Part shown: piece by piece, positions 9,207 to 38,632 of the stretch
Layout of the letters: each line of letters opens with the position of its first letter
Numbering within the stretch: position 1 is the stretch's first letter
From: Octopus vulgaris
Taxonomy: Eukaryota
Assembly: GCA_951406725.2 (NCBI GenBank)
Contig: OX597829.1
Span: 47,740,001-47,804,000, forward strand
DNA length: 64,000 bases
Reading direction: 5' to 3'
The notes under the pieces: model-generated
Seen by the model: the letters and a program-made list of their open reading frames with translations, nothing else
The model's database searches: none
What the model was told of the DNA's origin: nothing
Position numbers and translations under genes: made by a program

Positions 9207-9790
9207 AGTATAAGGTGTGTTATGAGCCTTTATAGAACACATATCTTTTAGAAACTCAACAAACAACTAAAGATGGAAAAGAGAAAGTGTTAAAAGTTTT
9301 ATAAAATTATAATCCAATGCATACGATCCGAGACTATAGTAGAAGAGACTTCCCCGAGTATGTTCTTATATTTCATCTTCCATAATCATTTTATGAATAT
9401 CCGAATGAGTTATGTGACACTCACCTTATCTAGTCATCTGTAATAATATAGTATTCCTCTGATATATTGTTTTTGATGTACTCTTCTTTTGCACTGAGGA
9501 GAACGGTAATATGTAATTAATTTAATTATAATTAATTTAATTTTTTTCCATGTTTCTTACATGTTAATATTACCATTCGAAACGATCGTATGCATGGATT
9601 ATAATTTTATAAAACTTTTAACATCTCTTCTCCATCTTTAATTGTTAAGTTGAGTTTATAAAGAATACTTGTTCTATAATTGCTCATAACACACCTTATA
9701 CTTGTAACACTTTCATATTTAAAAAAATACTTACAACAATAGTAAGCTACCAATTTAATATGAAGACTCTTTATTAGAAATCTAACAATA
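9207..9790 (+). mobile_element. Fold-back PLE-like remnant with inverted arms 9207-9328 and 9584-9702
   Basis: The arms are diverged reverse complements; the element contains an HHR and is TA-flanked. Confidence 0.65.
9490..9594 (+). ncRNA. Type I hammerhead ribozyme, canonical core, long stem II
   Basis: tgca-CTGAGGA-gaacggtaatat...atattaccattc-GAAAC-GATC-GTA-tgca. Confidence 0.85.
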
Positions 9791-9844
9791 ATATATATAT
9801 ATATGAAAGAAGTTTTGAAAATGCAAAGGTCTTATAGAGATGTT

Positions 9845-10027
9845 TATTGACTTGACTGGTTTCAGTTTTTTAGAAGATTATCAAAAGTAAAATGTAAAGA
9901 TTTGTATAATCTTTGTTGTGTTAAAAATGGTCATCACAAGACCATTTTTTAATACAACAAAGCTTATGCAAAGCTTTACATTTTATTTTGATAATCTTCT
10001 AAAAAGTGAAATCCAGTCAAGTCAATA
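9845..10027. repeat. About 180-bp hairpin (inverted repeat)
   Basis: tattgacttgactgg... pairs with ...ccagtcaagtcaata around the loop ggtc-atcacaa-gacc. Confidence 0.85.
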
Positions 10028-10282
10028 TATATATATATATATATATATATATATATATATATATATACTACAAAATTAGAGAATGGAGAAACATACTTAA
10101 ATCAATAAAACATCAACTATCCGATGATACTCAATCCATACTTTAATACACCATTACATAGGAGTAAAGGCAATATATAAAATGAAATGAGATATACAGT
10201 AATAGTAAAAGTAAAAGTAAAAGTAAAAAGATAAAGAGATATAAGTAAAAAATTATAAATACAATATGCAAATAAATCAAAA

Positions 10283-10390
10283 CTGACAGCTGTTTCGGCA
10301 GTGAGGACAGTCATACCTCATTTAACCTATAAGCCATAAAGGCAGGTATAAATGAGGCATTAACAAAGATGCCCCACGGCCTCTTCAGAG
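10283..10390 (-). ncRNA. Type I hammerhead ribozyme (mirror copy of 12700-12807)
   Basis: Reverse complement of the motif in the right arm. Confidence 0.85.
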
Positions 10391-12699
10391 AATTAAATTA
10401 AATTTGTTATAATAGTGAAAAATATTATATAATCATATACATATAAATATAAAAATATAAAAAAGTAAAATATAAAAACTTATACATCATAATGCTACAC
10501 TTGTATAATATAATACATATTTGTACAAAAAGGAAGGTAACCAGAACAAAATAAAACAAAATATATAACAGTGTATATATAATATTAATAAGTACCGATA
10601 TCATACATATTTAGCTAATAGTTTTTTTTAATATTTAGCTAATATTTAGCTAATATTTTTTAATATTTAGCTAATAGTTTTTTTATAAATTTCATAATTT
10701 TATAATTTTTATAGCTACATTTGTATAATAACTAATTGGATGTGTCTAGTATTATTGGTTTCTTGGTTTTTGTATGTGGGTTTTTGTTTGTTTTTTTTAA
10801 GAGAAATGCAATATGACATAAAATAACATATTCATTTTGGTATTTGCCTTGTAATGTGTGATTTTTGAAGTTTTCCAATATTGCATAGTATATTGCAAAG
10901 TATATATGTATATCTTGGTTAGATACCTAGCTCTGGATAATGTAATGATATTGTATAATATGTAATATATGAGAGCCTTTTGTGAGTTTGGTGGGTTTAG
11001 GTTGAGATTATGGGTTTTTTGTATGTGCTGATTTGGAAGGTTTTTATTATATATTTGGTCTTTTTGTACTCACCTTAATTTGTATCTTATGTTATTCACT
11101 GATAAACCTTTTTCATTTTTTTCATTTTCTCATTTACATGCATTTTGCTTTATAATTGTTACCAGCCTCATATATTTAGTTTATATCTATAGTCCTCTGG
11201 ATCTGTACTTTAAACTATCCTTCCATACATATTTACTTTCAACAATATAAAATATATATATTCACTTTATTTATTTTTATTTATTTCCCATTTTATTGTA
11301 ATATTATCAATATTTGCATCTAGTCTTCTATTTATTTATTTATTTGCCTATTTAAGTGTGGATGTTTACATACATATCAAGTCATTTAATTTGTTACCTA
11401 TTTATTCTTTACTTATTTACTTATACTGGTGTAGTTTTATACATACATATCTATCATTTATTTTTATTTATTTTAATAATATATGAATACATATATACTA
11501 GTTTGTACTTATAATTATGTGTATAACCGTATTTATTCCTTCGTATTTATTCCTTTTTATTTATTTTATCTCTTTTCATATTAAGTCTTTATAATATAAA
11601 ATTTATTTAAAATTTCTGTGATGTTCTCATAAGCGTTTACATTAATACTTCCCCCTCTATTTTTTATTGCCTAAACTGGTATATTTTGGCACTATATTTA
11701 TTAAGTTAATAAGTGACTTATTTATAATATCTAAATTAATATATTTTATATTTTATATTTTATAATTTAGCGTACTTTAAATCATAACAAACTTACGATA
11801 AACCTAACAACCGTATGTTTACTCTGCAACAAACCGGTGTTACAAATTTTAAGTTACCCATGAAATAATTATCTGAATTAGTAACATACTGATATTTAAA
11901 AATACATTTATATCTTAATTAAATATTTTATAGAATGCATGGATGGTTCTTTTTTTGTTATTGAGGCTCAGTTATAATTTTGAAGGACTTAGTGTTAGCA
12001 TGGTTGCTTCCCTATTTGTTTATCTAAGTGTTAGTTGTTGCTTATGATTATGTATATGTACAAGTGTATGTATATACATATAACTATGTGTGTATGTGCG
12101 ATTGATCTGTAGATGCGTGTGTGAATATTGGCGTTCCCTGACTAACCAACCGTATAATTTTCTTTTGTGATTTAAATTTCAAACCAATAGCCAATCGAAT
12201 TAATCTAAATTTTCTTTACCTAGTGGTCAGCATTTCTTAACTCATAGTTATTTCGATCTTGGAAGGATGGACTTGGTGATAACTTAACTGTATCTATTTT
12301 TATTATTTTTTATTATTATTACTATTATTATTTTTATTATTATTATTATTATTAATAGTAATTTTTATTAACTTTTATAGCTTTAGAATTTTATGAACTG
12401 TACCACGGATTTAATTATTATTATTTTTCATCTCCATATGTGTTAGCCCCCTTTTTTTATAAAAAAAACTATTAGCTAAATATGTATGATATCGGTACTT
12501 ATTAATATTATATATACACTGTTATATATTTTGTTTTATTTTGTTCTGGTTACCTTCCTTTTTGTACAAATATGTATTATATTATACAAGTGTAGCATTA
12601 TGATGTATAAGTTTTTATATTTTACTTTTTTATATTTTTATATTTATATGTATATGATTATATAATATTTTTCACTATTATAACAAATTTAATTTAATT

Positions 12700-12807
12700 C
12701 TCTGAAGAGGCCGTGGGGCATCTTTGTTAATGCCTCATTTATACCTGCCTTTATGGCTTATAGGTTAAATGAGGTATGACTGTCCTCACTGCCGAAACAG
12801 CTGTCAG
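12700..12807 (+). ncRNA. Type I hammerhead ribozyme, canonical core, about 85-nt structured stem II
   Basis: ct-CTGAAGA-ggccgtggggca...tgtcctcactgcc-GAAAC-AGCT-GTC-ag, with internal hairpin tgcctcattta/taaatgaggta. Predicted cleavage is after 12805. Stem I is only about 2 bp. Confidence 0.85.
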
Positions 12808-13359
12808 TTTTGATTTATTTGCATATTGTATTTGTAATTTTTTACTTATATCTCTTTATCTTTTTACTTTTACTTTTACTTTTACTATTACTGTATATCT
12901 CATTTCATTTTATATATTGCCTTTACTCCTATGTAATGGTGTATTAAAGTATGGATTGAGTATCATCGGATAGTTGATGTTTTATTGATTTAAGTATGTT
13001 TCTCCATTCTCTAATTTTGTAGTATTAATTTACGGTAATATTATTACCCTTACCCATTTAATACAATAGATGAACTGATTGCTTGACAATTTCTAACATC
13101 TATGTATTAATTTTTGTTGGGTACCTATCTAGCAGTATATTGGATATATATTATCCCATGGTGGGTTGAATTTTCAACCCCTATCTCATTTTATAACCTA
13201 TATATATATATATATATATATATATATATATATATATATATATATATATATACATATAGTTAATCCAATCATGAAAGCACAAAAAAAAACACAACAACGC
13301 GAGGACGTGGAACAAATATAGTATTTATTGGACGCTCAGGAAAGAAGGAAAGAAGGAGG

Positions 13360-37590: not shown

Positions 37591-37993
37591 ATGAAGACCA
37601 TCATATATGAAGCTACCGTAAACTCTATAACCACTAAAGACACCGTTTCGACGAAGAAATACGTGGGCCTTACAGAGGGTAATTTCAAGGGCAGGTTCAA
37701 TAACCACACTTTGAGCTTTAGGCACTGGAACAAAAGAAAAGCGACACAATTATCTAATCATATTTGGTCTTTAAGAGATAAAGGTGTCGATTATAACATA
37801 CAATGGAAGATTTTTGGCCAGATGTAAGCCCTATATTAACGGCAGCGGAAGGTGCGGTCTATGCGACATGGAGAGATGGCTTATCTGGAAAAGCAGCTTA
37901 GACCCTACTACATGTCTAAATACAAGGACAGAGCTTTTCGGATCATGCCCACATGTGACTAAATTTCTGTTACGTTTTTGGTCCCCTAAATAA
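37591..37993 (+). pseudogene. GIY-YIG endonuclease domain of a Penelope-like element (partial, 1-bp frameshift near 37812)
   Basis: IIYEATV...KKYVGLTEGNFKGRFNNHTLSF...ATQLSNHIW.L...YNIQWKILARCKPY..GSGRCGLCDMER...LNTRTELFGSCPH. The inverted arm keeps the frame across the frameshift. Confidence 0.9.
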
Positions 37994-38193
37994 AACAGAT
38001 AGAACATGCTTTCTGTGTTATGTCCCAAGAAGAATTTATATATTTTTATATATTTTTATATATTTTTATGTATTTTTATATAATTTTTATGACGAAAAAT
38101 GCGAGCGTTGTATAAGTACGCAGGCAAGCAGAGTTATAACAGAGTAATTTCCCTTTATTTAACGGTATTTTTTCATAACGTTTTCAAATAGCC

Positions 38194-38256
38194 AGATAAC
38201 CGAAGAGATGGTGTTGTGGATTTCCACTTCGGCATCTGAAACTCAGAGTTTTATCT
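38194..38256 (+). ncRNA. Type I hammerhead ribozyme (U4C variant) in the PLE 3' region
   Basis: agataa-CCGAAGA-gatg...gtgga tt tccac...catct-GAAAC-tcaga-GTT-ttatct; 6-bp stem I. Confidence 0.8.
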
Positions 38257-38412
38257 TGACTACCGAGTAATGTAACATATTGTATAGATAAATTTCCTCT
38301 ATTTACATAATATTGAGGTCTCTTTCTTTCTTTTGTTATCTTACCGTTTTATCAATATATATATATATATATATATAGTGCGATATAAACATTTTAGGTG
38401 GTTTTTAGAATC

Positions 38413-38458
38413 AGGGTTTGACTGCTATTTCGGCATGGTGGTGTCTCTCGGATACCCT
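38413..38458 (-). ncRNA. Degenerate hammerhead motif
   Basis: agggtat-CCGAGA-gaca ccacca tgcc-GAAAT-agca-GTC-aaaccct; 1-nt core deletion. Confidence 0.55.
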
Positions 38459-38547
38459 TATTTATATATATATATATATATATATATATATATATATATA
38501 TATATATATATATATATAAATAAGCAACAAGAATAACTTCGGTAATT

Positions 38548-38632
38548 TGGTACGATCGTTTCACACCTACATCATTTTATTAAATGTTGTAAGTATTACA
38601 ACAGTTTTAAAATGCTGAGCATTCATCAGCCA
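38548..38632 (-). ncRNA. Type I hammerhead ribozyme, canonical core, long stem II
   Basis: tgg-CTGATGA-atgct cagcatttta..tgttgtaa tac ttacaaca..taaaatgatg taggtgt-GAAAC-GATC-GTA-cca. Confidence 0.88.

Follow-up and report, generated by a model that had tools for sequence, protein, structure and literature searches.

What kind of hammerhead ribozyme does a 64,000-nt stretch of the Octopus vulgaris genome (contig OX597829.1, positions 47,740,001 to 47,804,000; hereafter the window) contain, and what does the unusually long stem II domain of its motifs do? A sequence-only reading of the window had picked out five sites at which about 60-85 nt separate the core halves CUGANGA and GAAA, and proposed a distinct long-stem-II architecture that standard searches would miss, in which the insert may serve as a reverse transcriptase (RT)-binding handle or stabilize folding. 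All five motifs are present, each as a member of a high-copy repeat family. We find that they belong to a real, abundant structural variant of the dimer-type hammerheads of Penelope-like elements (PLEs), which the current Rfam and the published descriptor both miss. The inserts are predicted to form an unbranched rod of 30-115 nt and, by analogy with known PLE hammerheads, such motifs likely self-cleave only as dimers. On balance we favor the view that the stem II rod is a tolerated extension of a dimer-type PLE hammerhead, constrained to remain paired. The architecture escapes detection as proposed, but it does not form a separate class, as the inserts span a length continuum.

The motifs at sites 9490, 12702 (with its mirror at 10283) and 38548 were located by a pattern scan of both strands and those at 30452 and 29546 by direct reading; their families are labeled A (9490), B (30452), C (38548), D (29546) and E (12702). 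Insert folding was scored against 200 shuffles of each insert. The family E motif (12702-12805, plus strand) is a type I hammerhead with an 85-nt rod (dG -38.0, z about -6), a palindromic stem III with loop AGCT, a 2-bp stem I and a predicted cut after 12805; it lies in the pseudo-long terminal repeat (pLTR) of a Hydra-clade PLE. The type I motif of family A (9494-9590, plus strand) has an AT-rich stem II of 78 nt (dG -13.7, z -3.0), loop III GATC and a 4-bp stem I, and that of family C (38551-38629, minus strand) a 60-nt stem II (z -2.4), loop III GATC and a 3-bp stem I. The other two copies are altered. The family B motif (30456-30540, plus strand; loop III GATC) has a rearranged 5' arm and has lost closure of the core; its 66-nt insert has a folding z of -1.0, and the family as a whole has an insert of 57 nt and a stem I of up to 6 bp. 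The family D motif (29550-29640, minus strand; 72-nt insert, z -3.5, loop III GCGC) is a damaged copy that starts in a (TA)n run, which has replaced C3 and the stem I 5' arm; the family core is complete. The type I order CUGANGA ... GAAA ... UH is thus complete at four of the five sites.

The 2-bp stem III with a palindromic loop (GATC, AGCT or GCGC) is seen at the window sites, and a stem I of 2-4 bp describes sites 9490, 12702 and 38548 but neither the damaged 29546 copy nor family B. The inserts are not, as supposed, unrelated: clustering by insert alone groups 30452 with 38548 and 9490 with 29546, giving two pairs of homologous superfamily members. Nor is the mirror motif (10285-10388, minus strand) a separate case. 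It matches the 12702-12805 motif exactly and lies in the inverted arm of the one insertion that holds both, the arms being 573 nt long and 99% complementary. That insertion is a family E PLE truncated at its 5' end, of which the 3' untranslated region and the pLTR are present (10682-13258, plus strand; 97% identity to positions 5350-7937 of L031, L-numbers denoting loci fetched from the genome for comparison), together with an inverted pLTR arm that has (TA)n at its end (10065-10634, minus strand).

Given these families, we asked how their architecture is distributed over the genome (2.8 Gb, 227 contigs). First-look searches gave 722, 1,781, 511, 1,458 and 471 candidates per motif family (these are not copy numbers), of which 40 each were scored. 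From the fetched loci 232 distinct motifs were grouped into 92 clusters at 85% identity; the sample combines the family searches, the first pattern matches on one contig (C1) and 20 regions picked by eye. Loop III is palindromic in 54 of the 83 clusters with inserts of at least 30 nt (5.2 expected), with 11 different palindromes represented. In 40 of these 54 the insert is predicted to pair to within 2 nt of each core half, compared with 2.5 expected from shuffles, and 38 of the 40 are predicted to be unbranched. The median folding z of the palindromic long clusters is -2.1, and the predicted core is freer with the natural than with shuffled inserts in 46 of the 54. Stem I has a median of 3 bp across clusters. 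Insert length runs continuously from about 14 to 110 nt and varies even inside superfamilies, one ranging over 39-68 nt and a second over 72-93 nt.

A covariation check on genomic copies had been suggested. Four sequence-only alignments (A1-A4) were assembled from 13, 9, 11 and 10 hand-chosen subfamily representatives, A1 omitting the rearranged window copy (L036) and a deleted one (L295). Two-sided changes occur in 11 of 24, 8 of 26, 10 of 31 and 7 of 19 named pairs, distal pairs included. They fall in stem I (A1, A4), in stem II (all four) and in the stem III palindrome (A1, A2, A4); in A1 the distal hairpin also covaries, with compensatory changes at both the base and the tip of stem II. 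The observed number of two-sided cells was reached by none of 500 shuffles in each alignment and the number of two-sided pairs by 0, 19, 30 and 0 of 500, and slid controls scored far lower than the real pairings. The inserts covary across subfamilies, with the caveat that the tested structures were named from the same aligned sequences and that relatedness was uncontrolled. On the sense strand stem II pairs include 58 G.U against 24 A.C.

To judge from protein motifs and repeat arrangement, families E and C are pLTRs of Hydra-clade PLEs, and we infer the same for families A, B and D. The motif, which is on the sense strand, precedes the RT open reading frame (ORF) by about 0.2-0.5 kb and follows the GIY-YIG end by about 0.5-2.1 kb. 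In the full-length elements L031 and L032 two family E motifs, 5.6 kb apart, enclose an RT with a GIY-YIG region after it; the encoded protein has RWR and DKT motifs, a CxCx5C linker and, at its C-terminus, a GIY-YIG domain that has CxxC and CxH and no CCHH. The features given for the Hydra clade are RWK-like and DKT motifs, a CxCx5C linker and, at the C-terminus, a GIY-YIG domain that lacks CCHH (PMC8557442, section 11), and by eye both family E and family C (L172) have them; Pfam gave no match on any of the three family E ORF pieces. The family C motif flanks a 4.94-kb Hydra-type element in L172. In 3 of 30 other family A loci a Hydra-type endonuclease remnant lies upstream of the motif and on its strand, and one family D locus has such a remnant as well. 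Family B had no ORF in 30 loci or in five longer stretches and is tied to PLEs through its homology to C. The arrangement is also that of PLEs: direct repeats (L031/L032), inverted arms in the window and in many loci, and (TA)n flanks. A 20-nt inverted repeat (9207-9226 and 9682-9701) flanks the window copy of family A and is likely its inverted PLE tail. Family E is young, as 40 of 40 scored genomic matches are 100% identical over 151 nt, and its frame was broken in all five long stretches examined.

RT identity is only 43-61% among full-length elements whose inserts measure 39, 51, 59 and 85 nt, and it is 39-61% when partial Hydra-type elements are included (20-, 39-, 51-, 54-, 59- and 85-nt inserts). 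An unrooted RT tree of six taxa, all copies from this genome, has support of 48-57 at two of its three inner nodes, too weak to order events. By eye the RT of L311 resembles the published Hydra-1_Obim, and the remnants adjoining 14- and 16-nt inserts are Neptune-like and Poseidon-like. A Naiad identity was rejected for these elements on account of the C-terminal position of the endonuclease and the Hydra-type motifs.

Like the Hydra-clade PLE hammerheads of Craig et al. 2021 (PMC8557442, File S2), they are type I, lie in pLTRs on the sense strand and have a palindromic stem III; also shared are insertion at (TA)n sites, the RT and endonuclease motifs and, at the foot of stem II, a frequent U.U pair or additional base, the U.U pair having published precedent. 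The short stem II that the sequence-only reading took as typical of minimal PLE hammerheads is what the published Hydra-clade rows show, with inserts of 12-26 nt in 26 of 26 (23 nt in Hydra-1_oBim; PMC8557442). The inserts described here are 30-115 nt, and stem III palindromes, usually 9-10 nt in the published set, here measure 8 nt. The motifs likewise share a short palindromic helix III, a short stem I, variability between families and low expected monomer activity with the minimal PLE hammerheads of Cervera and de la Peña 2014 (PMC4209133). There, however, a helix II "larger than usual" means 6-8 bp, against rods of roughly 12-35 bp here, and the minimal hammerhead descriptor allows a stem II of 3-7 bp and a loop 2 of 3-10 nt, at most 26 nt in all (PMC4209133, Fig. 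S7), which excludes the window inserts of 60-85 nt. When helix II is called long in viral type I hammerheads, it likewise measures 6-8 bp (PMC13725137), and small-helix-III dimeric hammerheads have been described by Lunse et al., as cited in PMC6765202.

Partial precedents for length exist in other clades. The spike-moss elements PLE-X1_sMoe and sTam have about 54 and 48 nt between core halves and are marked non-canonical, and in eight Naiad cases labeled HHR_half_core the halves are 35-50 nt apart (PMC8557442). These are single uncharacterized cases, and the sections of that source considered here report no genome-wide class, covariation or 8-nt palindrome for them. Nine palindromic stem III motifs had no match in the Craig et al. 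2021 supplement, where line breaks may hide some, and in the main text of the O. vulgaris repeat annotation paper the words "ribozyme" and "HHR" are absent. We found no literature description of a 30-115-nt stem II class, although Lunse et al. and Arkhipova et al. 2017 could hold long-stem examples. The relaxed descriptors of the latter reportedly permit longer loops.

The long forms are abundant. Exact pattern matches were counted on both strands with the reversed pattern as control; the length bins are not exclusive, as nested matches may count in two. The pattern CTGANGA-N(55-85)-GAAACNNNNGTH with a 4-nt loop III matched 31,094 times, versus 1,269 for the reversed pattern. Inserts of 6-29, 30-54 and 86-115 nt gave 15,379, 18,816 and 7,402 matches (1,231, 1,369 and 1,332 reversed), so that the excess for 30-115-nt inserts is about 53,000. 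The trend reverses when GAAAC and GT are 5-6 nt apart, 6-29-nt inserts giving 23,799 matches (2,221 reversed) and 55-85-nt inserts 6,259 (3,167 reversed). Hence the long arms belong mainly to the class with an 8-nt palindrome. About half of the first 100 short-stem matches listed come from a single family, whose stem II domain is 21 nt long and whose stem III interior, of 5 nt, is not palindromic.

Comparison with published PLE hammerhead models, which could have shown the architecture to be already covered, instead placed it outside both the descriptor (at most 26 nt) and Rfam. Rfam gave no gathering match in the 64-kb window, and Rfam 15 at E<=10 gave no hammerhead family among 47 matches on 20 loci or among 8 on positions 12650-12850; over the whole window at that threshold 150 of 374 matches were listed. 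The roughly 53,000 excess matches thus lie beyond published descriptor limits, and Rfam missed every long form tested. Because the descriptor caps length, hammerhead censuses of animal genomes, and claims of hammerhead-less PLE clades, may be undercounts. The search was extended to viral contigs, where 44 pattern matches are about the chance level by our own estimate and the insert closes at its base in 2 of 26 distinct cases, neither with a stem I, and to metagenomes, where 147 candidates reduced to one weak locus without a hammerhead.

How might such a motif work? The motifs do not have the form of the canonical tertiary-stabilized hammerhead, in which stem I has 6 bp, stem II has 4 bp and there is a contact between loops I and II or a pseudoknot. 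They have the short palindromic stem III of the dimer type, and the 8-nt palindrome is predicted to be far more stable as a duplex (-6.4 to -13.3 kcal/mol) than as a hairpin (+2.4). By extension from known PLE hammerheads, for which a dimer model has been put forward (PMC4209133; PMC6765202), a 2-bp stem III would be unstable alone and two motifs would join through their palindromes as an 8-bp helix. The partner could come from a tandem pLTR, a tandem array or a second transcript. The paired motifs would cut after GUH, possibly helped by an element protein, and cleavage would free unit-length RNA from read-through precursors. Family E copies extend past the predicted cut by 210 nt in 18 of 30 loci, by 380-400 nt in 11 and by 170 nt in one. 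As copies end 170-400 nt beyond the cut site, the RNA used as template for reverse transcription presumably retained an uncut ribozyme. In an anole PLE uncut RNA is the template in vitro and hammerhead cleavage needs the ORF protein (PMC11167929).

One setting in which dimers would arise naturally is provided by L298 (515-2394) and L299 (658-2094), which contain tandem units of 534-535 nt (100% and about 98% identical, respectively), each with a hammerhead having a 50-nt stem II. These arrays are retrozyme-like: non-LTR retrozymes are tandem arrays of type I hammerheads for which a PLE origin has been proposed (PMC7229834; bioRxiv 10.64898/2026.07.22.740005). Classical retrozyme hammerheads, however, have 6-bp and 4-bp helices with loop-loop contacts (PMC7229834), whereas the window motifs lie in PLE ends and not in tandem monomers.

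Stem II of engineered hammerheads tolerates large inserts. In the PLE motifs arm length would be free to change because the 2-4-bp stem I is open and no loop I-loop II contact fixes the length of stem II. We picture an arm that grows and shrinks at its tip, with selection keeping the rod self-paired such that it closes the core junction and avoids invading the core, and with neither the sequence nor the length of the rod carrying a specific function. Given that no loop motif, pseudoknot or length-linked gain in folding was found, a tolerated extension kept paired is the most likely role of the rod.

A number of observations weigh against this reading. In 14 of the 54 palindromic long clusters the predicted fold does not close at the base. 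Long arms persist across lineages of about 45% RT identity, which is unexpected for purely neutral extension. The 55-85-nt excess is about 29,800 in the 8-nt-palindrome class and about 3,100 with 5-6-nt loops, and stem I becomes weakly shorter with longer inserts (rho -0.29, p 0.017, not corrected for kinship), its mean falling from 3.6 bp at 6-29 nt to 2.3 bp at 86-115 nt. Folding energies of sense and antisense inserts do not differ (26 versus 26 clusters), so the argument for selection on the RNA strand turns on the G.U to A.C count, and that count leans on structures predicted as RNA and on related sequences. Finally, DNA-level correction between inverted repeats can give the appearance of covariation, and relatedness is not taken into account by the shuffle control.

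A broader proposal is that long-stem-II hammerheads are an overlooked functional class in which the rod, as scaffold or handle, is required for dimer cleavage or mobilization, that outnumbers the short forms here and that is hidden in other animals, also in PLE clades at present reported to lack hammerheads, such as Naiad; we hold this only tentatively, as doubtful. The reading that the rod is adaptive for folding, nucleating the core, offsetting the 2-4-bp stem I and weak stem III and so raising dimer cleavage, seems unlikely to us. The trend of stem I with insert length and the association of long arms with the 8-nt palindrome are what it would predict, and among viral type I hammerheads cleavage is much faster with a helix II of 6 bp than with one of 0-1 bp (PMC13725137). 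Gains from helix II length are, however, known for the first few base pairs only, the stem I trend, not corrected for kinship, depends on the longest bin, where one superfamily is abundant, and predicted core accessibility is flat with insert length (rho 0.04, p 0.77, n=66). The suggestion that the insert stabilizes folding is therefore weakly favored by stem I and not by accessibility.

Less probable still is the handle, a family-specific shape bound by the PLE protein for RT loading or assisted cleavage. The anole hammerhead requires its ORF protein to cleave (PMC11167929), and structure is kept to the tip in diverged subfamilies. No loop sequence motif common to the inserts was found across clusters, the first interruption of the rod falls at no constant position (median length 4 bp for the first helix and 5 bp for those that follow, p 0.41) and pseudoknots are not in excess (3 seen, 5.0 expected). 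The proposed RT-binding handle thus finds no positive evidence; moreover, insert length varies inside superfamilies and reverse transcription begins hundreds of nucleotides downstream.

We consider it improbable that the hairpins are a DNA by-product of slippage or template switching in AT-rich palindromes, with the RNA fold unselected. PLEs readily make inverted repeats, the tips of family A are AT-rich and variable in length, and sense and antisense energies do not differ, but the closing of inserts exactly at the core junction (40 of 54 clusters), the 58:24 ratio of G.U to A.C and rods that are bulge-rich rather than perfect palindromes all argue against it. Very improbable is a spliceosomal intron that is, or lies within, the insert and leaves a short hammerhead after splicing. 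Introns of D. virilis Penelope overlap pLTR hammerheads and the family E insert has splice-like words, but sister subfamilies do not retain these words, and contigs of two putative RNA runs bridge the whole insert, with no joint inside it in any of four runs, which may be DNA. Among runs recorded as RNA, none contains this stretch. The contigs of these four runs (four studies) cover the pLTR and the start of the ORF; they cannot show ends, strand or level, and imply neither transcription nor cleavage.

The function of PLE hammerheads, and any importance of stem II, are open to direct experiment in this genome, which supplies a graded natural set of insert lengths (about 14-110 nt), one family of very recent age whose ORFs are near-intact, and tandem arrays.

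Other hammerhead and PLE remnants were encountered. An inverted fragment of another Hydra-type PLE (37042-38293 of the window, with the C-terminus of GIY-YIG) carries a hammerhead variant at 38200 on the plus strand and at 37135 on the minus strand, in which the core starts with CCGAAGA and the stem II domain is 31 nt. At 62605-62654 (plus strand) lies a hammerhead motif whose stem II domain spans 28 nt and whose stem I has 6 bp, and a hammerhead-like hairpin that ends in GAAA, with a non-standard first core half, is found within a common repeat at 29170-29210 (minus strand). A reading frame at 19219-19536 (plus strand) resembles by eye the linker of Neptune- or Nematis-type PLEs and had no other match in the fetched loci. 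Outside the window, L303 has a 1,549-codon open frame (2403-7049, minus strand) among PLE pieces, which by eye resembles a Helitron Rep/helicase.

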